DNA of 64,000 bases, counting the filler, from Chrysochromulina tobinii (Eukaryota), in NCBI GenBank assembly GCA_001275005.1. It is 6 parts of 6 records of this genome, joined end to end, with 100 filler letters (N's around TTAATTAATTAA, not from the genome) between each part and the next. Parts side by side here need not be neighbours in the genome. Positions count along the whole stretch, not along the records: positions 26,423 to 45,804 come from JWZX01001299.1; 5 more parts are not named here. One strand, given 5' to 3'. Both the position numbers and the translations under genes were made by a program. Below are positions 8,741 to 42,973 of this stretch, piece after piece. The notes under the pieces are model-generated. The model was given only the letters and a program-made list of their open reading frames with translations. It had not been told where the DNA came from and did not search any database. Numbering within the stretch: position 1 is the stretch's first letter; every line of letters starts with the position of its first letter.

Positions 8741-11700
8741 ATGAAAGTGGCCATGTGCATCCTTCTAGCTTGGGTGGTTGGGTCGAGCGAGGGCAATGAC
8801 GATTGGGATGAACCCGTCGCAGATCAAGAAGATCCGGGCAGAGGAGCGCGAGCGGAGTGTCGCTGTCAGGCGCGCCTGGACGTGCAACTCGTGGTACCTT
8901 TGCTTCTCGAGCGCGATCATCGCCATCGCCTTCATCCACCCGCTCCTTTCATCGACGGGCTGAGAAAGGGCATGCGCCAGGACTTTGAGATCGCGTTCGA
9001 GGAGCTCTTCATCGAGGGCAAGCTCTGGGACGCTGGCGTCAAGTCCTCGTTCCCGTACGGCCAGACGAATGCGAACGAGGACGCTGCGGGCGACGGGCCC
9101 GTCGAGGAAGCGGCGAAAAGGGACGGGATACCTTTGCGGTGGGTGGAGCGCTTCGACGGCGGCGCACTCGTGCTGCTCTGGCTCGGGTTGCTCGGGTTCA
9201 TCTTTGCAGTTTGCTCGGAGCAGGATCGGTCCAGCCGGAACAAGCGCTTCGCAATTCGGTCGAAAACCAATCGCTCCCACCGTAACAAGTGGTTCGAACT
9301 GGCCTTGCTCGCGCACATGGTCCCGCGCGTCGCCGACGCACAGAGCGCCTACTTTGCCGTCACCTCTGGCCGTTGCACCGTCGATCCGAGCGCGTGGAAC
9401 TGCATTCGCTCGCCCAACTTTCCGTATGATTACGTCAACAGTCAGACGTGCTCCATCACGCCGACTGCGCTCGCCATTGGAAGGCCTTTGACAGCGACCT
9501 CCTTCATTACGGAGTCTTGTTGCGACTACCTCCGCATACCTAGCCACCCGTCGGGGACGTTGACGGCGTTCTCAGGATGGACCGGACCTTCCAATTTCAT
9601 CTTGGGCCCGGGGACGATCCAATGGTCTTCAGACAGCAGAGTCACCCATACCGGCTGGCGAGTGTGCGCGGGCTCGGCGGGCTCGGCGGGCTCGGGCGGG
9701 ATCGCTCGACTTGTGGAGCTCACTCGCAGCGGCAGCGCGGTGGAAAAGGAGAACGCGGCGGCGGAGCTGTCGACCCTTGCCTACAACAACGCCGACAACC
9801 AAGTGGCGATCGCGCGCGCGGGCGGGATCGCTCCACTCGTCGAGCTCACTCGCAGCGGCAGCCTGGTAGCGAAGGAGAAGGCGGCGGGGGCGCTGTGGAC
9901 CCTTGCCTACAACGCCGACAATAGAGTGGCGATCGCGCGGACGGGCGGGATCGCTCCACTCGTCGAGCTCACTCGCAGCGGCAGCGCGGTGGCGAAGGAG
10001 AAGGCGGCGGGGGCGCTGTGGAACCTTGCCGTGAACGCCGACAACAAAGTGGCGATCGCGCGCGCGGGCGGGATCGCTCCACTCGTCGAGCTCACTCGCA
10101 GCGGCAGCGCAATGGCAAAGGAGCATGCGGCGGCGGCGCTGTGGAACCTTGCCGTGAACGCCGACAACAGCGTGGCGATCGGGCAGGCGGGCGGGATCGC
10201 TCCACTCGTCCAGCTCACTCTCAGCGGCAGCGCGGTGGCAAAGCAGAACGCGGCGGCGGCGCTGTGGACCCTTGCCTTGAACGACGACAACAAAGTGGCG
10301 ATCGCGCAGGCGGGCGGGAACGCCAACGACCAAGCAGCGATCGCGCAGGCGGGCGGGATCGTCACACTCGTCGAGCTCACTCGCAGCGGCGGCGCGGCGG
10401 CAAAGGAGCAGGCGGCGGGGGCGCTGTGGGTCCTTACACGGAACGCCACGAACAGCGTGGCGATCGCGCGCGCGGGCGGGATCGCTCCACTCGTCGAGCT
10501 CACTCACATCGGCAGCGCGGTGGCAAAGGAGAACGCGGCGGGGGCGCTGTGGAGCCTAGCCTTGATCGACGACAACAGCGTGGCGATCGCGCGCGCGGGT
10601 GGGATCGCTCCACTCGTCGAGCTCACTCACATCGGCAGCCCGAGGGCACAGGAGAACGCGGCGGGGGCGCTGTGGGTCCTTGCACGGAACGCCGACAATA
10701 GAGTGGCGATCGCACAGGCGGGCGGGATCGCTCCACTCGTCGAGCTCACTCGCAGCGGCAGCGCGGAGGCAAAGGAGAAGGCGGCGGCGGCGCTGCGGAA
10801 CCTTGCCGTGAACGACGACAACAAAGTGGCGATCGCGCGCGCGGGCGGGATCGCTCCACTCGTCGAGCTCACTCGCAGCGGCAGCGCGGTCGCAAAGGAG
10901 AAGGCGGCGGCGGCGCTGTGGAACCTTGCCGTGAACGACGACAACAGCGTGGCGATCGCGCAGGCGGGCGGGATCGCTCCACTCGTCGAGCTCACTCGCA
11001 GCGGCAGCGCGGTCGCAAAGGAGAAGGCGGCGGGGGCGCTGCGGACCCTTGCCGTGAACGCCGACAACCAAGTGGCGATCGCGCAGGCGGGCGGGATCGC
11101 TCCACTCGTCGAGCTCACTCGCAGCGGCAGCGCGGAGGCAAAGGAGAACGCGGCGGCGGCGCTGCGGAACCTTGCCGTGAACGCCGACAACAGAGTGGCG
11201 ATCGCGCAGGCTTGTGGGACACTCGTCGAGCTCACAGCGGCAGCGGGGGCACAGTTTTGGGGCTTGGTTCTGGTTTGCTTGCTTCTGGCTTGCTTCCCGC
11301 TGATGCATGCCTGTTGTTGCCTGCCAAAAAACCCGCCAGTGAAGATAGTCAAAGTTGCAGATGAGGAGGGGGAAAACACAGAATTGCTTCCAGTCGGGAC
11401 TGCCAGGAGCAACGCCGGGCATGCCATCGCGCCTCCACCGAGGTGGGACAAGGCGGCAGCAGAGAGGGCGCTGCCTCTGCCACTGATTGCCTTGCCCCCT
11501 GCCATCTTTCTCGACGTCCCTTTTCAAGTTGTGCGTGCCCTCGTGCTTCCTGATTGCTTGCGACGAAGCGCCGTGCTGGGCACCACGTGCTTTTCACTGA
11601 GTATCCTACTGCCCTGCCATTTCGAGGTCGACCGTTCTCAAGCGCCAAGTTGTGCGTGCTCTCGCGCTTCCACAGGGGCGAGGCAGAGCGGCGCGAGGCA

Positions 11701-28243: not shown

Positions 28244-31200
28244 ATGGTGAAGCCGGTGCAGAAGCAAGTACGTAACTCGTGGGGACCAGGCACCTCTGGC
28301 GGCTGCCCTCGCGTGCCCTCGTGGACGAAGAACCCGCAGTACCTCCTAACGCCGAGCGCGCCCGGCTCCTTCACGATCGTGCTCCGGTGCAATGCACAGC
28401 CGCTCCTGGACATTGGCTTCGTGGTGCTCAAGCAGCAGAGCGGCGACCGTGGCGGTCGCAAGACATCTCCAAAGGTGAGCAAGCGCGAGCTCGTGACTAA
28501 GACCACGTGGAAGCCCGTCGACGTGCAGACGGCCGAGGTGGACCTGCCGCCTCTGGCGAGCGGCGAAGCACTGGGCTACATCATCGTGCCGTGCACCTTC
28601 GACCCTGGCCACCAGGCGGCCTTTGAGCTGTCTGTCGCCTCCGTGGCCGGCGTCGCCTTCACGCTCACCGAGCTCCGCGACGACGCCGGCGCGCCGTCGC
28701 GTCCGGCGGTGCAGCCAGTGACTCTGACGGAGGCGAATGTCGCCGCCGCCAACGCGGCCAACGCCGCCTCGGGAGGGGTGCCGGCCAAGCTGCCCGCGGC
28801 CAAGGCGGCGGCCGCACCGGTCAGCGGTGGCGCGGCGGCAACGCCCTCCATCGCCAAGGCGGAGGTTCCGGTGGCCGAGAATGAGGTGCAGCCCATCTCG
28901 GAGGGCCAGGGCCTTTCTAAGAGGCAGCAGGCCGACGTGGCACGTCTCATCGCTGAGGCGGAGGCGGCGGCCGCGCAGAACGGTGGGCTGTTCGTGGACC
29001 CCAACTTTGTGGCGGGCCCGTCCTCACTCTGGGCGGACGGGCGCGCCCCGGGCGCCGAGCTGCGTGCGAGCGGGCTCCCGGCCGATCCCGTCATCGCGTG
29101 GCGCCGACCGTCCGAATTTGCGGCCGACCTGCCGTCAGGCTCGGGTGTGCCCCGGCTCTTCTCCGACGAGCGGAGCGGCGGCGTGAGCGGCGTGGTCGCC
29201 TCGGCGCTGCTCAACCACTGGCTCCTCGCCGCGTGCAACATCGTGGGCGGCGACCTGGGCGTGCTCGAGCGCGTCTTTGTCGACCGTTCACATGGCGCCC
29301 AGGGCTTCTATCTGGTACGCTATTGCGTGGACGACCCAAATTCGGACGAGCCGCCAGAGCTCTGCATGCATGTGCTCACCACGGCGCCTCGTCCCCCTCC
29401 CCACAGGTACGCTTCTACGTGGACGACCCAAAGTCGGACGACGACTGGCACGTGGTGATCGTGGACGACAGGCTGCCGTGCGGCAAGGACGGCCTTCCGT
29501 GCTTCGCGCGCACGCCCTCGCCCGCCGTGCTCTGGCTCCCGATCCTCGAGAAGGCCTTTGCCAAGTATAAGGGATGTTATGAGAAGACCGGCGGCGGCTC
29601 TGTCGAGGATGGACTTCTGTACCTGACTGGCGGCCTGTCCCGCGAAGTGGGCGTGTTGCCCTCGAATGACCCCGAGCTCGTGGACGCGCTCTGGGGCCAG
29701 ATGATGCAGTGGTGGCAGACTTCGCACGTCATCGGGTGCGAGCACCGCGTCGACGGCGAGCCGCCCGACGAGCTGACCCGAAAAGGGTTGCTCGCCAACC
29801 TGCCGTATTGCGTCATCGTGGGCGGCGAGTTCTACGGCCATCGGATGGTGAGGCTGCGCACCTTTTATGGCTATTCGGAGTGGCGCGGCAAGTGGGCCGA
29901 CGACGACCCGTCGTGGACCACGCAGATGCGCCAGCTGATGGCGTACCGTAACAATAGCGAGGACGGCACGTTCTGGATGGGCTTCGACGACTTCGTGCTC
30001 TGGTTCAACGTGCTCTTCACGTGCCGGATGGCCGACGACCGCTGGACGAAACTCACCATGCGCTCGCGCTGGCAGGGCGCGACCGCGGGGGGCTGCTGCC
30101 CCAACTTCGCCACGTGGCGCTGCAACCAGCAGTGGCTGCTCACCACCAAGCAGCCGCTCCGCCTCACCATCTCCCTGTCCGTGCCGGCTCCCTCGAGCGC
30201 GTCCACCACGGACCACGAGGCACTCTTCCCGCCCGAGGGTGCTCTAGGGATCACGATCCTCAAGGGCAACCCTGGCGCGGACGCCAAACGGCGCAAGCTG
30301 CTCCTCACCTCGGCCGACGAGCTCATTGTCCGAGCGGAGCCTCGACAGGTGCGCCGCCTCGTGCAGGACGTGACGCTCGAGCCGTCGGAGACGCCGTATG
30401 TGCTGCTGCCGCACACGTTCACACCAGGATGCGAGACTCCGTTCACGCTCGTGCTGCGCGCGGACGACGAGAACGACGACGGTCTTCCCGATTTCCATCT
30501 CGAGCCGGTGCGCCCCGAGACGGACTGGTACCAGAAGACGTTTGACGTAACCTGGGCGACAGCACTCGAGATTGTGTGCCAGCCCTCAGATCTTGCGAGC
30601 CCTCGAGACGATGGCAAGACCGCGGCGCTCAAGGCGGCACTCAGGCGTGATAAGCAGGCGGCGGGCGCGGACGACGACGACGACGACGACGATGGTAAGC
30701 CGGCCAAGCCCAATTTCGACTTCGGCGGCGCGCCGCCGGGCGGCCCGCCCAAATCGCGTGGCTTTGTGGCCAATCCTCAGATTGCCCTCAAGGCCGAGAA
30801 GGTGGGTCGCTTCTTCATAGTCGTCGATCAGCTTGGCGTCAACCTCGACGGCCGCATGAGCGAGGGCCCCTCGTCCGATATGTACCCCGAGGTGGGCGTC
30901 GCAGTCCTCGCCTCGGTCGCGGCGCTCGACGACGGCCGGCTGGACGACGGCGAGATCTTGCACGATGAGCGCGCTGCGGCTGACTCGGTCATGCTGGCGT
31001 GCGGTCTGGCCACCTCGGAGGTGGCGTACTGCGTGGTTCCCTACCTGGCCAGTCCGAAAAAGGCTCTCGCAGACCATCCCAACCTGCGCTGCCGCGTGTG
31101 CGTGTACGCTGACGTGCCCTTCACGCTCGACAGCGGCGCACCGAAGCTTGGCGCCGAGCACGCGATGAAAGAGGACGGCACGTGCACGTGCTGGAACCTG

Positions 31201-31365
31201 GGGAAGATGCCCGATCAGCAGAATGAGATGACGTGCCCCATTCTGCGCGTGTACAACTCGCTCAAGAAGATTGAGCGCGGCCTCGACCGGCAGCTCAAGT
31301 ACCTCGACACGCTCGCCCCCTTCCCGCGCGAGGCCGGCCTTGCCAACCGTGACACGAGCGGTTGA
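28244..31365 (+). CDS. Calpain-like protein (C2L/domain III - degenerate CysPc - C2L - C2L); exons 28244-29314 and 29407-31365
   Basis: WGPGTSGGC..W.KNPQY, FVDPNF, WRRP, VIVDDRLP, LEKAFAKYKGCY, EWRGKWAD, DGTFWM.FDDF; splicing restores GFYL|VRFY. Confidence 0.88.
29315..29406 (+). other. 92-nt phase-0 intron whose first 35 nt duplicate the next exon (family A tail)
   Basis: GT...CAG repairs the frame; 31/35 identity of 29315-29349 to 29407-29441; tail TGCATGCATGTGCTCACC...CCCCACAG. Confidence 0.9.
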
Positions 31366-35395: not shown

Positions 35396-36994
35396 ATGAC
35401 CAAAATGAAGAAGAGCGGAGCCCCGGCCGACGGAGCACCGTCGGACGGAACGTCGACGAAGAAGACGGGCGCCAGCCAAAAGCCAAAGCGCTCGGACACG
35501 TCCAGGATGATGCTGTGGGCTGCGCCGGTTGTTGTCCTGCTGGCCGCTGGCATTGCATTTGTGTCCAAAACTAAGCTGTGGCACGATACTACTCCAACCC
35601 ATGCGCAATACGCGGCTCAAACCCGGCAAGGCACGGCTCCGGAGAAGGAGAATTCAACGCCATCCAAGACCGCTGCCAAAGGGCTGGGTGTGGACCCGAC
35701 AACGAGCGCCAAACTGCCAAAGGGCTGGAGCTCTGCGACGGACCCGACGACCGGCGCGCAGTACTATTTCAAGCAGGGATCGCGCGAGACGCAGTGGGAG
35801 TTTCCGACCGAGGCGGTCGCCGTTGAGGCGCCTGGAGGAGGAGCGAGCGTCGCGCCCGCGGCGGGTGAGCCCGGTGAGCCCGCGGACTGCGCCGCATGGG
35901 CGGCGGCTGGCGAGTGCACTGCCAACCCGGCCTTTATGCGTACGGAGTGCAAGGTGACGTGCGAGCGAGCGGATGAGGCCGCATCGGCCCATCTAGTGGA
36001 CCTGTACACGCCCAAGGCCGAGTGCGTCCAATGGGCGCAGATTGGCGAGTGCGAAAGCAACAAGGCCTTCATGCAGGCGCAGTGCGCGTTCTCATGCTCT
36101 CCCGCAGGCATCGGGGGCAAGGTCGATTCGCTGCGTGCCCAATACCGCGCTCGCTGCCCGCGCGCGCCCGACGTCAAGCCCGCCCTCGCTCCGGATGCGA
36201 TGAACGCGACGTTCGAGCGCGTGATGTCGGAGTTTGGCGATCTCGAGCCCGAGATGCTCTCCAGTGACCCCCCGGTTGTCCTCTTCCACAACTTCTTGAG
36301 CGAGGCTGAGGCGGAGGCGTTCATCAGGCATGGGAAAGGCAAGTACACGGAGTCGCGCGGCGTCGGCATCGACAAGAATGGCAAGACTATCGAGGTGTGA
36401 GGCCTGTGACTAGCCCTCTGATGGCCCATGATTGCCGCTCACGACGACTTATGATAGCCTCCCTCTCATCAGGTGAAGACCGAGATCCGCACTTCGCGCC
36501 ATGCCTGGTGCATGGAGAGCGCCTGCCTCGAGGACCCACTAGTGCAGGCCGTCCAGCAGCGTGTGAGCGACGTCACACAGGTACCCGTGCCCAACACTGA
36601 GTTCGCACAGCTCGTGCATTACAATGCGTGCCCGAAGCACGACGACCCCACATGCGCCTTCTACCGGCGTCACTCGGACTGGATCGACGGCGACATCCAC
36701 CTCGTGCAGGGCGTGCGCCTCTACACAATGTTCATGTACCTCAACGACGTTCCGGAGGACGGCGGCGGCGGCACGCGCTTCACCGACCTGCCGGGAGGGC
36801 CGCTCACCATCCAACCCAAAAGGGGGAGGGCCGTGCTATGGCCCTCGGTGCTCGCGAGCGACCCAGGCAAACAAGACCACCGCACGCACCACGAGGCGAT
36901 GACCGTGTTCAAGGGCGAGAAGTTTGGCGCCAACTTTTGGATCCACCAGTACGACTTCCGCACGCCGTACAAGATTGGGTGCACCCTAAATTAG
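35396..36994 (+). CDS. Prolyl 4-hydroxylase with TM anchor, WW domain and two ShKT domains; exons 35396-36394 and 36473-36994
   Basis: LPKGWSSATDPTTGAQYYF...TQWEFP (WW); C..WA..GEC..N..FM...C...C twice; FHNFLS..E, RTS, HSD, FMYLNDV..GGGT.F, HEA..V..GEK. Confidence 0.92.
36395..36472 (+). other. 78-nt phase-0 intron (family B tail)
   Basis: GAG|GTG...CTGATGGCCCATGATTGCC...GCCTCCCTCTCATCAG|GTG removes the in-frame stop. Confidence 0.9.
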
Positions 36995-37568: not shown

Positions 37569-39317
37569 TCATACACTCACGCGCCTCGCAAGCCACGCCG
37601 AGGGTGGGAGCGCTTGCAGCGCAAAGAGGCGCGGCCGCACAAGAACGAACCACGCCACCCCGACGAGCAAGCTGAGCATGCATGTGGCTGTGTACCCGTC
37701 GATGAGCACCTCGGGCTTACACTTGCACGGGGCGGCCACCGCTACTCCAAATACCTTGCCAATCGACTTGCCAAGAGCTTGCCAAGGCATGGCAAGAGCT
37801 TGCAGTGCGCCCGCCGTGGCTGGCGGCTCGCAGGAGCACGGGCGAGTGTGGTGCATCGCATCAATTAGGAAGAGCGCCGCGGTGTTGGGCCACGCAGCGC
37901 CCAGGTTGGCAATGGTGTTGAGCATGGTCATGTACGTGCCACCGATGCTCGGGTCGGCCACACGGTTAAAGAAGGCCATGATGGCCACAAAGCCCGTCTC
38001 CTGCACCGCCACCTGCACGAGGATGGAGAGAGTGACCACCGCGTAGAGCCAATAAGGCAAGCCGCCCGAGCTGCCCCGGTGCGCGCCCACAACGGTCACG
38101 AGCGTGAGTGCAACCAGTCCCATGAGCAGCCGTGCCGGGTAGAGGCGCGCGAAGATGTGCAGCGGCTTGGCCTCCTCGCCGGCCGCGCCCGTCGTCAAGA
38201 AGCGGCCGGAGACGTAGAGCTGCACGCCCATCCCAAGAACCTGTGGGCAGAGGGGAGTGGGGAGGGCGAAGGGGTGAGCACTTGCATGCGCGCACTCCGA
38301 GGAGCGCTGCCCCCCAAGCACCTGTGCGACGGAGACCATGATCGCGAGGTGCTCCTTCGGCATGCCCGCCTGCGTGATGCGCAGCGAGGTGGCCGAGCCG
38401 AAGACACCGAGCGCCGCACGGCACGTGAGCAGCGCGAGCGCCATCGAGCGAACGGCGGGCAGTCGCAGCACGAGCCACATCTCCTCGTACGCGTCGCGCA
38501 GGAGGGTGCCGAGGGAGCCACGGAGTGGCATGTGCTCGTCGCCACGCGAGAGTAGCGCCACCCAAAGGGTCGAGGCGAGGAAGACCCATCCCCAGAAGAG
38601 CATGAACCCGCCCAGCGTGACGAGTCCATGGGTTTCGTCAAACGCAGCCGCCGGGCGCAAGTAGGCGTTACAAAACTCAGGCGAGTAGAGCGCGAGGAAG
38701 CCGGTGCTCGAGATCAGATATCCGAACGACTGGCCGATGGTGTTGCACGTCGCGCCGAGCTCCTTGTTGGCCGGCGATAGGATCGTGAGGGCGAGGCCAT
38801 CCACTGCGATGTCCTGTGTGGCCGCCAGGAAGAAGAAAGCGAAGAAGAGCATCGTGAGCGTGCCCACCTCCACGGGCACGTCGACGCCACCGCCCTCGCC
38901 AAGCCACACATCGATGTGCGGCGCCGCCCACAGCAGCAGCGCGCCGATCGCCAACTGTGCGGGCACGATCCACGTCTTACGTCGGCCGAAGCGACTGTGG
39001 TACAGCGAGTCGACAAGGGGCGCCCATAGCAGCTTGAGCGAGAACGGCCAACTCGCAAAGGAAAACTTGCCCTGGTCGGAGTCCCGCAAGTTCTTTTTTT
39101 GCATCAGAAAAGGCACGGCGCTCGCGATGCCCATGGGTACGCCCTGCAGCGTGTACAGCAGCAGCAGCAGGCTGATCGCGAAAATGTCCTGCCGCCAGCC
39201 GACGACGGGCACCGTGTCGGCCGCTGATGCTTGCTTGCGCAGCTCAATGTCAGCTTCTGACCGCGCTGAGGAGCCAGAGGGTTGACTGCTGCTGCTGCGA
39301 TTTCTGATCTCTGCCAT
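37569..39317 (-). CDS. SLC33A1: Acetyl-CoA transporter 1 (AT-1, MFS); intron 38241-38321
   Basis: LLLLYTLQGVPMG, WPFSLKLLWAPLVDS, GRRKTWIVP.Q, ATQDIAVDG, DPSIGGTYMTMLNTIANLG. Confidence 0.93.
   Translation of the reverse strand: MAEIRNRSSSSQPSGSSARSEADIELRKQASAADTVPVVGWRQDIFAISLLLLLYTLQGVPMGIASAVPFLMQKKNLRDSDQGKFSFASWPFSLKLLWAPLVDSLYHSRFGRRKTWIVPAQLAIGALLLWAAPHIDVWLGEGGGVDVPVEVGTLTMLFFAFFFLAATQDIAVDGLALTILSPANKELGATCNTIGQSFGYLISSTGFLALYSPEFCNAYLRPAAAFDETHGLVTLGGFMLFWGWVFLASTLWVALLSRGDEHMPLRGSLGTLLRDAYEEMWLVLRLPAVRSMALALLTCRAALGVFGSATSLRITQAGMPKEHLAIMVSVAQVLGGQRSSECAHASAHPFALPTPLCPQVLGMGVQLYVSGRFLTTGAAGEEAKPLHIFARLYPARLLMGLVALTLVTVVGAHRGSSGGLPYWLYAVVTLSILVQVAVQETGFVAIMAFFNRVADPSIGGTYMTMLNTIANLGAAWPNTAALFLIDAMHHTRPCSCEPPATAGALQALAMPWQALGKSIGKVFGVAVAAPCKCKPEVLIDGYTATCMLSLLVGVAWFVLVRPRLFALQALPPSAWLARRVSV
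38241..38321 (-). other. 81-nt in-frame intron (family A tail)
   Basis: CACAG|GTGCTTGGG...GCATGCAAGTGCTCACC...CCCACAG|GTTCTTGGG; if retained it interrupts a TM helix. Confidence 0.8.
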
Positions 39318-39732: not shown

Positions 39733-42700
39733 ATGGAGCTGAGCTCCCCGCAGCGCCGCATACTCGAGTCGACGCGCAACACCGTGTCGCTTGCCAAGTC
39801 AAAGCTCTCGGTGCTGCAGCAGGCGATCGACGAGCGCTTGTCCGCGGCGCTCGCCAAGAATGCTGAGCTGCACGCGGAGCTGATGGGCACGAAGGAGAGG
39901 CTGCGTGCCACTGAGGAGAGGCTGCACGCCACTGAGGAGCACACGAAGGCGGCCACACGCGCGAGCTCGAGCGAGATCGAGGCCATTCGACAGGAGGCAG
40001 CCATCTGCGCTCGCCGTGCGCATGCGGCAGAGGACAAGATGCAGCAGTTGGCGGCGCGGGAGCATCCTCTGCTTGAGAGGAGCATGGCTCTCGAGCGCCG
40101 TGCGACGCAGGCCGAGGAGGCGGTCAAGAACCTGGCGCACCAGGCCGAGATTCGCGCCGCGCTTTCGAATGCGGCGCTCGAGGCCGAGGTCGACAACCGG
40201 CGGGCGCTCGAGCGCTCGCTCGGCGCCGAGCTGGCCGCCGCGCAGAACGAGGCTTTACGTCAGCGGCAGCGCGCCGACGAGGCGTCAGGGGCGCTCTCGG
40301 CCGAGCGGCTTGGCGTCGTGACGAGCAGTGAGACGTTCGCGCGCGACGCCGAGCGCCAGGTCTCCGCTGCGGCCGAAGCGGTGAACGTGAATGAGAGAGA
40401 GGCTGCGATCGCGCGCTCGGCTGAGGCTGTGCGGCGTGCGGAGTCGGCAGAGCGTGAGGTGGGGCGTGCACGGAGTGCCGCGGCCAGCGCGGAGGCGCGC
40501 GCGCGGACGCTCGAGGCTGAGGCCGCGGAGGTGCGCGCGGCGGCGGCCGAGTGGCGAGCGCGCGCCGAGGCGGCTGAGGAGGCGATCGCGGCAGCAAGGG
40601 ACGCGGCGAGTGCGGAGGCGGCTCAGCGCGCGCGGCTCGCGTCGGAGCTGCCCTTGGCGCTCGAGGAGCGCGCGCATGCACGCCGGCGTGCCGAGGCCGC
40701 CGAGCGAGCCGCAGCGGAGGCGACTGGCGAGGCGGCAGCGGCCAAGGCGGCTGAAGGGCGTGCACGAAGTGCCGCGACCAGCGCGGAGGCGCGCGCGCGG
40801 ACGCTCGAGGCTGAGGCCGCGGAGGTGCGCGCGGCGGCGGCCGAGTGGCGCGCGCGCGCCGAGGCGGCCGAGGAGGCGATCGCGGCAGCGACGGATACCG
40901 CGAGTGCGGAGGCGGCGGAGGAACGCACCCGCGCGCGCCGGAGGATAGAGGTGGCAGAGCGAGTCGCGGCGGAGGCGGGCCGCAACGCCTCAGACAAGCT
41001 CGCGAACGCGTCGGCGACGGTGCGCAAGGCGCAGGAGGAGGCGGCGGTGGCGACGGCGCGCGCGAAGAGTGCGGTCGAGCGCCTGCAGCTGCTTGAAGCG
41101 GAGCTCGGGCGGGAGCGCTCGTACGTCAGCCAGGCGTCGCGGCGAATCGCTGAACAAGCGGCGGCTCTCGAGGCGACCAAGGCGGCCGTTGAGCAAGCGA
41201 GGCAGCAGGCGGCGAGCCACGCCCGATATCGGCAGACGATCGTGCAGCACCACCGGCTCACTGAGCAGCATCACAACGCGCTCGGTGCGCCCTTGGGGCC
41301 TATGATGGTCACTGATTGCCTCTGAGTGCCTCTGATGGGCCTATGATGGCGTCCCTCATCAGGTGCGCACGCGGCCGCCTTTGATTGCGTCCCTCATCAC
41401 CTCTGATTGCGTCCTTCATCAGGTGCGCACGCGGCCGCGCTCCATGGAGCTCTGATGACGTCTGATGATCACTGATGACCCATGATTGCCTCCTTCATCA
41501 GGTGCGCACGCGGCCGCGCTCCATGGAGCTCTCACACACGCCACCTCAGGCGCGCCCCTCGAGCCTCCCCAGGCCCATCTGCTTCTTGCCACGTCGCAGC
41601 TGCTCTCTCGCTCGATCGAGCAGCTGCGCCAGCGCCACGCCGCGCTCACGGCGGCGCTCGAGCCGGAGCCCAAGACAACGCCGGAGCCCAATCCTTGCGT
41701 AGGAGCCGGCTGCTGGGGAGCGCCCAAGACAACGCCCAGCGCGGAGGCGCCGCCGACAGCCGCGGCCCCGTCGTTGGCGGAGGTTCCGTCCTTGTCGGCG
41801 CTTCCGTCGTTGGCGGCGGCACAGGCAGCGAGCTCCGCGGAGCTCGAGCGCCAAGCTGAGCGCCAAGCTGAGCGCCAAGCTGAGCGCCAAGCTGAGCGCC
41901 TAGCCGTGACGGCGCGCGAAGCCATGGCGCCCGTGACGGCGCGCGAAGCCATGGCGCTCAGCATGGCGCTCGTCGCCGCGTCGGCCTCCGAGAGTGCATG
42001 CTGGCGGGGCGAAGCCGCCGCGGCTGTGCACGCACGCCGGGCCACCGAAGAGGTTGCGAACGAGAAGGCCCGGCGCGCGGCCGCCGAGGTGGCGCGGTGG
42101 AAGGCCGAGGCCGAGGCGGCGCAGCATGCAGTGGCGAGGGCGGAGGCGCAGGCGGGGATGACGCCGGGGGGGGGCGGCCAGGAGGCCTACCCCCGTCGCC
42201 TCTCTGACTACGCCGCCGGGCTTCCTAACCTCCCGCTGCTACCGTCACTCTGGCCAGAGACGCCCCAGTACAAGCCACGCACCGCCGGGCGCATGGCGCT
42301 CGACATGGCGCCGCCGGCCACCGCCACGGCGCTCGCGCTCGACTCGCTGCCACCATACCGGGAGCCGTCCTGGGCGCCTCGGCCACCCGCGGCCCCCTCC
42401 TCGAGCGCCGTCGTGGGCGCGTGCTCCGCCTACACAGGACTCGGTGCGCCGTACGGTGCGGACGTTCTGAGTGCGGAGGCGGTGGCTCGCGAGGTGATGC
42501 GTTCCATCGACCTCGCAGCGGAGCAGCTCAGCCAGGCCGAGATGCGCGCGAATGCATGCGTCGGGTTCGCGACTCCGACGCCACCATCGGCGGCGGCGCA
42601 ACTGCTACCGGTACGATCGGCCGCTGATTGAGGGGGCACTGATGGCGCCTGATTGCGTCTGATGACCTCTGATTGCCTCCCTAATCAGGTACCGGTACGA

Positions 42701-42973
42701 TCGGCCGGAGGAGGAGAAGCCGCAGGGCCAGTTGCATCGCGCGATGCACCCAGCTCGACCCCGTGTGTCTCGATGGCTCCGCCGAGCCCCGATCTCAACG
42801 GCTTCACACCCAATGCGACCGCCGGTGTGAATGCGAGGCCAGCGGCAGAGCGGCTCGACGACGAGCTCATGCGCATCGACAACGAGATTGCCAAGTTGCA
42901 GCAGGCGCTACAAACGGCGAGCACGACCGAGGGAGATCCAGGACGCATGGAGTGCCGGACTGCGAGTGCATAG
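39733..42973 (+). CDS. Long Ala/Glu/Arg-rich coiled-coil protein; exons 39733-41284, 41502-42610, 42689-42973
   Basis: Three consecutive ORFs joined in frame by GT-AG introns; internal ~54-aa duplication at 294-nt spacing. Confidence 0.75.
41285..41501 (+). other. Compound 217-nt intron of three stacked GT...CATCAG units (41285-41362, 41363-41422, 41423-41501)
   Basis: Phase-1 splicing joins ORF 39733 to ORF 41486; each unit starts with GTGCGC and ends in TCATCAG. Confidence 0.85.
42611..42688 (+). other. 78-nt phase-0 intron (family B tail) with an 18-nt host duplication
   Basis: TACCGGTACGATCGGCCG at 42606 and 42690; tail CTGATTGCCTCCCTAATCAG. Confidence 0.8.

Follow-up and report, generated by a model that had tools for sequence, protein, structure and literature searches.

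Where new spliceosomal introns come from has long been asked, and for most recent gains no source can be traced. Among the systems described so far, the closest to the case considered here are introners that carry a 3' splice site and take their donor from a target duplication, as reported for Symbiodinium, Polarella glacialis and Aureococcus; in P. glacialis, classes 4/5 and 6/8/10 have this polarity (bioRxiv 10.1101/2020.10.14.339549; PMC9860276). Haptophytes also harbor related elements. Family fam24 of Emiliania huxleyi, with five copies, is described as 'co-opt 5' carry 3'' with '10bp terminal direct repeats' and a mechanism unknown, and fam1 of the Pavlovales, which shows the same polarity as our case, is classed as non-LTR (PMC12130899). 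The introner of a marine Chrysochromulina has 4-bp duplications and the opposite polarity (PMC9860276, Fig. 2C legend), and for Chrysochromulina tobinii itself the accessible part of the 2025 introner survey gives 0 families (PMC12130899).

Other models of intron gain share single features with this case. Introns of Daphnia pulex attributed to staggered breaks have a direct repeat common to the intron and one adjacent exon, in their case of 4-12 bp (PMC4202315). In the tandem genomic duplication model a host exon becomes intron, for which no foreign insert is needed (PMC3443670). Intron transposition takes an existing intron as the source, and the proposed route, reverse splicing by lariat spliceosomes, copies the whole intron and by itself produces no duplication (PMC11146597). 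Replitron-1 of Chlamydomonas combines a precise end at a dinucleotide inside a variable duplication with another end that carries parental flank; Replitrons are not presented as intron makers in the accessible part of that source (PMC10288648). Further papers bearing on this comparison are PMC11282704 and PMC8557442.

Here we describe an intron of a calpain-like gene of C. tobinii, found in a window (the whole stretch of DNA analyzed, 64,000 nt) that consists of six contigs with N spacers between them; the intron lies inside the contig at 26423-45804. Our main reading, to which we assign a probability of about 0.6, is that this spliced intron was gained recently, consists of a 35-nt exon duplicate plus a cassette, and goes back to an existing intron, the 3' half of which was copied into a staggered DNA break. 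The relevant features are as follows.

28244..29314, plus strand: coding part of exon 1 of the calpain-like gene, with a Calpain_III domain and the start of the Peptidase_C2 region
29315..29406, plus strand: phase-0 GT-AG intron of 92 nt, with the ORF restored on removal and RNA contigs at the junction
29315..29349, plus strand: left target copy of 35 nt (36 with the G at 29314) with a GTACGC donor, showing 4 differences from the exon copy and polymorphic among strains
29350..29363, plus strand: filler of 14 nt that does not match the continuation of the exon
29364..29388, plus strand: family core of 25 nt, consensus GCATGCAWGTGCTCACCACGGCGCC, with a predicted branch motif CTCAC at 29375-29379 and a predicted branch A at 29378
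29389..29406, plus strand: pyrimidine-rich tail and acceptor of 18 nt, a family tail that ends in CCCCACAG
29407..29441, plus strand: right target copy, the start of exon 2 (VRFYVDDPKSD), conserved and matching 29315-29349
29407..31365, plus strand: coding part of exon 2 up to the TGA stop, with Peptidase_C2 (E 2.5e-37) and Calpain_III

The first-pass annotation of this DNA had described the front of the intron as a 35-nt duplicate of the next exon, and this description holds: 31 of the 35 positions match 29407-29441, with differences at 8, 9, 11 and 27, and the chance of at least 29 matches in 33 with the GT fixed is about 7e-13. Identity extends just 1 nt (G) further upstream. The predicted branch A was placed at 29378 because CTCAC in the core fits the general branch-point consensus YUNAY. 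The annotation had further held that the insert gives only a branch point and an AG. Both are there, the branch point as a prediction, while the restriction to these two does not stand, as the insert also brings the 14-nt filler and about 11 strongly conserved bases upstream of the predicted branch motif, which could be the mark of a cis-acting element. The filler was probably carried over from a template intron whose location was not found, and among the sampled events no parent of the focal intron was recovered, the best upstream match being 5 nt. An 11-nt inverted match of the filler at 28294 may be fortuitous and is not used as evidence. Folding of 29300-29445 is unremarkable (z -0.42), so no hairpin role is proposed, and a search of 29250-29480 in Rfam gave no match to E 10 and no tRNA, 5S or 7SL head, which a truncated copy could lack.

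Splicing was followed in three RNA runs (X13, X14 and X15) and compared with one DNA run (X12), and a k=31 graph was used to predict the contig pieces. X13 and X14 break off at 29321 and start again at 29406; X12 shows no break at 29321. The graph predicts a piece of 52 nt for the spliced form, with differences at 31, 32, 34 and 50, and one of 144 nt for the unspliced form. Both pieces were found, X13 containing a 52-nt contig at 29292-29340 with 3 differences and X14 a 144-nt contig at 29292-29435, and the expected splicing of the junction is thereby confirmed; the focal junction is deduced from contig pieces, since the contig that spans the junction aligns to the duplicate. The 52-nt contig could in principle stem from an undecayed allele or one without the intron, but this was ruled out, as the DNA run has no branch at 29321. 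Spliced and unspliced forms thus coexist in these RNA libraries, and X15 lists unspliced pieces alone at this junction. Word depth in X13 is 6.7 for the spliced and 7.3 for the unspliced pieces, from contigs that do not measure levels. Carried-over DNA probably does not account for all of the unspliced form, because 10 of 30 bins covered by the DNA run have no depth in X13.

Relatives of the host protein bear on the age of the intron. In the closest protein cluster, for which 15 members are listed (from 40 of 79), eight members that are at least 99% identical begin just after the junction, four are shorter fragments, and three, 96% identical and encoded on contigs of 3.7-6.0 kb, are continuous across it. 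The 5.5- and 6.0-kb contigs of the latter are likely DNA, because RNA contigs span only about 3.3 kb. The uninterrupted junction motif also occurs in 22 of the 37 best hits, including calls on contigs of 48 kb and 90 kb, most of the remaining hits being fragments or distant paralogues. As far as protein calls show, the sister lineage therefore reads through, in line with the expectation that relatives lack the intron at this position. Removal of the intron joins 28244-29314 to 29407-31365 in an ORF of 1009 aa, and together with the 96%-identical sister this bears out the claim of a scarless gain; with the intron retained, the calpain-like frame stops after 404 aa. One distant homologue (P0025, 11.7-kb contig) has an in-frame read-through of about 60 residues just upstream of the junction; this probably represents another, independent intron located about 5 nt away. 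Two freshwater DNA runs compared at 85% likeness gave 1 piece (X19) and 13 cassette-only pieces (X21) but no orthologue, a result that is uninformative on its absence.

Strain variation is concentrated in the intronic copy. Fifteen read-through peptides are listed (from 39 of 46 cluster members), and their fourth intronic codon encodes C in 11, F in three and Y in one, the single Y allele retaining the exon state; more variants occur at codons 3, 10 and 11. The exon sequence, translated in the shifted frame, does not differ among the 15 peptides. At least three of the four differences between the duplicates sit on the intron side, so that the earlier claim of a decaying intronic copy is upheld. 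Judged from these sequences, the intron is common to the focal lineage, absent from the sister (on protein evidence) and drifting.

Hundreds of other introns share the cassette. Within this family (family A) the focal intron is typical, and its duplicate is longer than the median. Loci were collected by exact core match in metagenome contigs (at least 144 stretches, 138 loci analyzed), and because of this choice the sample leans to young copies. At least 278 distinct core copies occur in 139 sequences, 150 of them solitary with enough flank, and the core recurs in the DNA run X12 and in many RNA contigs. In X12, 10 contigs diverge before 29364 and nine behind 29388, which, with the other loci, agrees with the first-pass proposal that the tail is shared in the genome. 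A flanking direct repeat scoring at least 12 accompanies 118 of the 150 solitary cores (2% of 400 mismatched pairs), and a pyrimidine tail with YAG follows 125, in 98 of which the tail ends in CCACAG. In 99 of these 125 acceptor copies a duplicate of the exon start precedes the core (control, 1.1% of 1500). The duplicates measure 9-47 nt (median 27), are 94% identical and in 31 cases perfect; this is the distribution of duplication lengths that had been called for. The introns are 53-123 nt long, nearly all of them 64-99 nt.

The left copy starts with GT in 82 and with GC in seven of the 99 introns, the other ten having neither, and a G precedes it in 80 (background 27%). Since G|GTRCG reads in both target copies family-wide, the target was donor-like before insertion, and the co-option of a host GT through a long target duplication, first suggested for the calpain intron, extends to the family. 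Duplicate and filler lengths are anticorrelated, with rho -0.46 when gaps are allowed; the value of -0.59 from ungapped alignment was rejected as the full effect, being in part artefactual. Long fillers accompany short duplicates, as expected if introns must reach a minimum length. The frame is kept in 28 of 28 sites that a Markov model assigns clearly to sense coding on both sides; of the 99 sites the same model leaves 64 unclassifiable and calls six mixed and one antisense, and an earlier codon model had classed only 31. When translated directly, the site of the sole antisense call, L103, lies in an open sense frame. Two locus ORFs were compared with Pfam and matched no family.

Not every copy conforms to this pattern. 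In 25 of the 150 solitary cores no acceptor was called, and a duplicate is present in 13 of these, some of them being acceptor copies missed by the rule; because some acceptor-less cores still have a duplicate, an AG end is not obligatory. At L012+6000, L036+6564 and L049+2635, acceptor-less cassettes lie in sense coding sequence and lengthen the reading frame by 60-63 nt without a shift; the same process thus inserts peptides there. Complete cassettes at L052+657, L099-300 and L025-6000 have near-perfect duplicates starting with GA or AT, and represent either non-canonical donors or unspliced insertions. Head-to-tail arrays of duplicate plus cassette, with up to five units that each end AG|GT, were seen at L048+6597, L031+1542, L062-356 and L078+300; they likely arose from unequal crossover between the repeats and are candidates for recursive splicing. 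A subfamily at L012+6539, L012-7638, L068+1803 and L063-4310 has its own GT donor and repeats of the second family (below) ahead of the core, and with little or no duplication its members are whole-intron copies. One core copy with an acceptor was found on a contig of a viral collection (L001, 1501-1522), which is possibly host DNA.

A second, unrelated family (family B) consists of arrays of 10-mer repeats (TGATTGCCTC-like) that end in CCCTCATCAG or CATTGCATGCAG. It shows the same long duplicates of exon starts, also ends at AG and occupies dozens of loci. In 563 kb we counted 141 duplicate-flanked candidates, 65 with an intact core, the shuffled control giving 0. Besides the calpain intron, the window contains one further candidate of the cassette type and introns of family B.

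36395-36472, plus strand: family-B intron, spliced in RNA run X13 with the joint at 36392/36471
38241..38321, minus strand: second cassette-type intron candidate, 81 nt, in frame and without a stop, in an acetyl-CoA transporter gene, with a short decayed duplicate
41363-41501, plus strand: family-B intron with 10-mer repeats ending CCCTCATCAG
about 42600-42688, plus strand: family-B intron with 10-mer repeats ending CCCTCATCAG
about 42604-42706, plus strand: family-B intron, overlapping the preceding entry, whose left duplicate starts with CT, not GT

In the last of these the nearest GT lies a few bases inside the duplicate, and splicing there would leave extra bases in the mRNA. Because two unrelated cassettes leave the same footprint, a machinery that acts on introns, rather than on one sequence, fits these observations.

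An empty site was found at the DNA level. The locus L103 carries an 81-nt family intron with a perfect 33-nt duplicate, while L015 and L051, with 96-97% identical flanks, have one target copy and no cassette. The end of the filler and the tail of the L103 intron are those of an intron 476 nt downstream in the same reading frame, and a recent gain is favored because the duplicate is perfect and the cassette equals that of the neighboring intron; the presence/absence pattern could instead reflect an exact loss. A similar relation exists at L060, where the filler of the intron at +8534 corresponds to the end of the host-derived duplicate that belongs to the intron at +6000, 2.5 kb away, with 5 shared bases at the join. 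Fillers are common to different loci, and clusters like that of L060 occur at L054, L009 and L019, some of them on opposite strands.

Resemblance among neighbors was assessed by permutation for 143 events from mutually near-identical assemblies, comparing 212 within-region with 9941 between-region pairs. At least 5 shared upstream bases occur in 19 of 212 within-region against 261 of 9941 between-region pairs (p 8e-4), a signal that persists at p<=0.004 after removal of any of four rich regions, and shared rare core variants occur in 25 of 212 against 219 of 9941 (p 2e-4); tail likeness among neighbors was not significant (3 of 212 against 72 of 9941, p 0.2). The best match lies in the event's own region for about 14 of 120 events, where 3 are expected, and because only these are local, most parents are distant or unsampled. 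Since copies resemble neighbors within a few kb and L060 carries a neighbor's host-derived bases, existing introns are likely templates, although gene conversion after insertion could also produce such similarity. A single pre-mRNA template does not account for neighbor pairs on opposite strands (L019, L012) or for the occurrence of both directions.

The copying into a staggered break that we favor could proceed as follows. Two nicks 10-45 nt apart would open the host exon, and a free 3' end would prime copying at the AG end of the template intron, back through tail and core; synthesis would stop at the core or some bases past it, so that the 5' filler of the template can come along. The copy would then rejoin by 0-5 nt of microhomology, and fill-in would duplicate the target. 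A coding insertion would survive if it is in sense, its duplicate starts with a donor-like G|GTRCG and its total length is at least about 65 nt, since the original mRNA is then recovered exactly by splicing, and the intronic copy of the target would drift thereafter. Target-primed copying is suggested by the fixed end at the 3' splice site, the variable other end, the variable duplication, the microhomology and the inherited parental flank. The template is likely another intron, often a neighbor, rather than a single master element, and was probably presented as intron-containing RNA made nearby; the copier may be a reverse transcriptase acting in trans or a repair polymerase. We tentatively extend this reading, at somewhat less than even odds, to the notion that introns in this alga breed from one another without a dedicated transposon, any intron, frequently one in the same or an adjacent gene, having its 3' half copied from RNA into a staggered break, the host exon donating the 5' half through a 10-45-nt duplication, and the resulting chimera being able to serve as the next parent. 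On the same tentative terms, the process would still be active in natural populations, could be reversed through recombination of the repeats, and would be missed by introner searches that rely on end-to-end similarity.

The strongest competitor, which we regard as possible though unlikely, dispenses with RNA: a broken end would invade nearby intron DNA (synthesis-dependent, polymerase-theta-like), copy 25-70 nt and return, and selection alone would retain those copies that lie in sense and end at AG. Parents located on both strands and on both sides, microhomology at both junctions, acceptor-less copies joined by C-rich microhomology, reiterated cores and the many ordinary short tandem duplications in the same DNA are all natural under such repair. 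Random templates, however, would be expected to leave more unrelated inserts, and the two intron cassettes predominate among the inserts flanked by direct repeats: among 307 in 495 kb, at loci selected for family A, 80 belong to family A and 107 to family B, most of the 106 others resembling local tandem repeats on visual inspection. Such templates should also leave more copies that extend into the exon of the parent, of which one candidate, L027-1407, was found.

Still somewhat less probable is a conventional short non-autonomous element with a cis-acting core and a cognate enzyme, be it a SINE/Penelope-type retroposon or an HUH element similar to Replitron-1, in which one end is precise and sits at a dinucleotide target while the other is fuzzy and derives from the parent's flank. 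The sharp, highly conserved core with its palindromes and the subfamily with its own GT donor at several loci speak for such an element. LINEs and PLEs produce variable duplications and short 5'-truncated copies (PMC9977147), and family A likewise has duplications of variable length with one fixed and one truncated end. Replitron-1 places a dinucleotide target inside a variable duplication and carries parental flank, and a Replitron protein has been reported from one C. tobinii locus (PMC10288648); here the L060 pair has a fuzzy end of parental flank, and the variable duplication starts with GT or GC in 89 of 99 introns. Replitrons, however, measure 0.9-3.6 kb and have 6-bp terminal direct repeats and an HUH transposase (PMC10288648), none of which was seen at the loci sampled: inspection of the insert ends revealed no short terminal direct repeats, and a variable 5' end faces a CCACAG 3' end without a complementary partner. 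Nor do MITEs or other elements with terminal inverted repeats fit, the duplication being 9-47 nt rather than a fixed 3-9 nt and such repeats being absent. There is no poly(A) and no Rfam match, the tail being a variable C/T-rich stretch that doubles as the polypyrimidine tract and differs in nearly every copy. Two unrelated cassettes with the same footprint also argue against one element, and among 26 acceptor copies searched to 6 kb upstream there was no long autonomous copy or enzyme.

An old intron whose 5' half was replaced by a local exon duplication, or a plain tandem duplication in which a branch site evolved later, is highly improbable: the genome is rich in short tandem duplications and one distant homologue (P0025) has an insertion near the site, but the sister lineage reads through, a 25-nt core at hundreds of loci cannot be convergent, and the empty orthologous site has one target copy and no cassette, which contradicts such an origin.

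Against this background, the relation to the described systems can be made more precise. As with introners, the sequence is common to many introns at unrelated loci, splicing is precise, and orthologous sites are empty, at the DNA level for L103 against L015 and L051 and at the protein level only for the calpain sister. The likeness to the introners of Symbiodinium, P. glacialis and Aureococcus further includes a repeated family, scarless gain, a donor from the first bases of the duplication and an insert-borne acceptor. Those introners, however, have fixed 3-9-nt duplications, often terminal inverted repeats, and copies alike end to end, as far as the accessible parts of the sources describe them (bioRxiv 10.1101/2020.10.14.339549; PMC9860276), whereas here the 5' 9-47 nt, about a third of the intron, are locus-specific host sequence, the 3' half alone is shared, and neighbors resemble each other. 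The repeats are longer than those of D. pulex and the insert is a family cassette; in contrast to tandem genomic duplication, a 57-nt insert of non-host sequence supplies the acceptor. The present case thus combines the tandem duplication model with that of intron transposition. A search for the core motif in the accessible supplements of the introner surveys (PMC9860276, PMC12130899), whose consensus sequences may lie elsewhere, gave no match, and the open-access literature searched yielded no report of the family or of long variable duplications at haptophyte introns. While introner-type gain is already known, the long variable target duplications and the signs of copying from neighboring introns are unusual.

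Source, insertion footprint and empty site can here be read in one lineage, and the mechanism is directly testable, because only a few kb separate parent from daughter introns. Should half of every new intron be host sequence, introner surveys based on similarity would undercount this route, and after its duplicate has decayed such an intron looks ordinary. The route also explains in concrete terms how exon starts could come to carry donor-like sequences (AG|GT proto-splice sites), and points to new introns that leave the protein unchanged and are likely missed by current searches.

Some observations concern the host gene and the remainder of the window. Pfam identifies Peptidase_C2 and Calpain_III in the calpain-like protein, whose best named homologues are from Prymnesium parvum (57%), which marks the host as a haptophyte. 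Neither a match to the family core nor a relative of this protein was found in prokaryote genomes, and viral contigs contained no relative of the protein. Calpains canonically carry a DCW motif in addition to His and Asn motifs. By eye, the calpain-like protein (29206-29230 and 29795-29875, plus strand) has NHW at the usual place of DCW and no His/Asn motif, the NHW being present in close homologues too; measured against the canonical motifs, it is probably a pseudo-protease. Elsewhere in the window, at 9663-11231, lies an array of 123-nt coding repeats that appear armadillo-like by eye.
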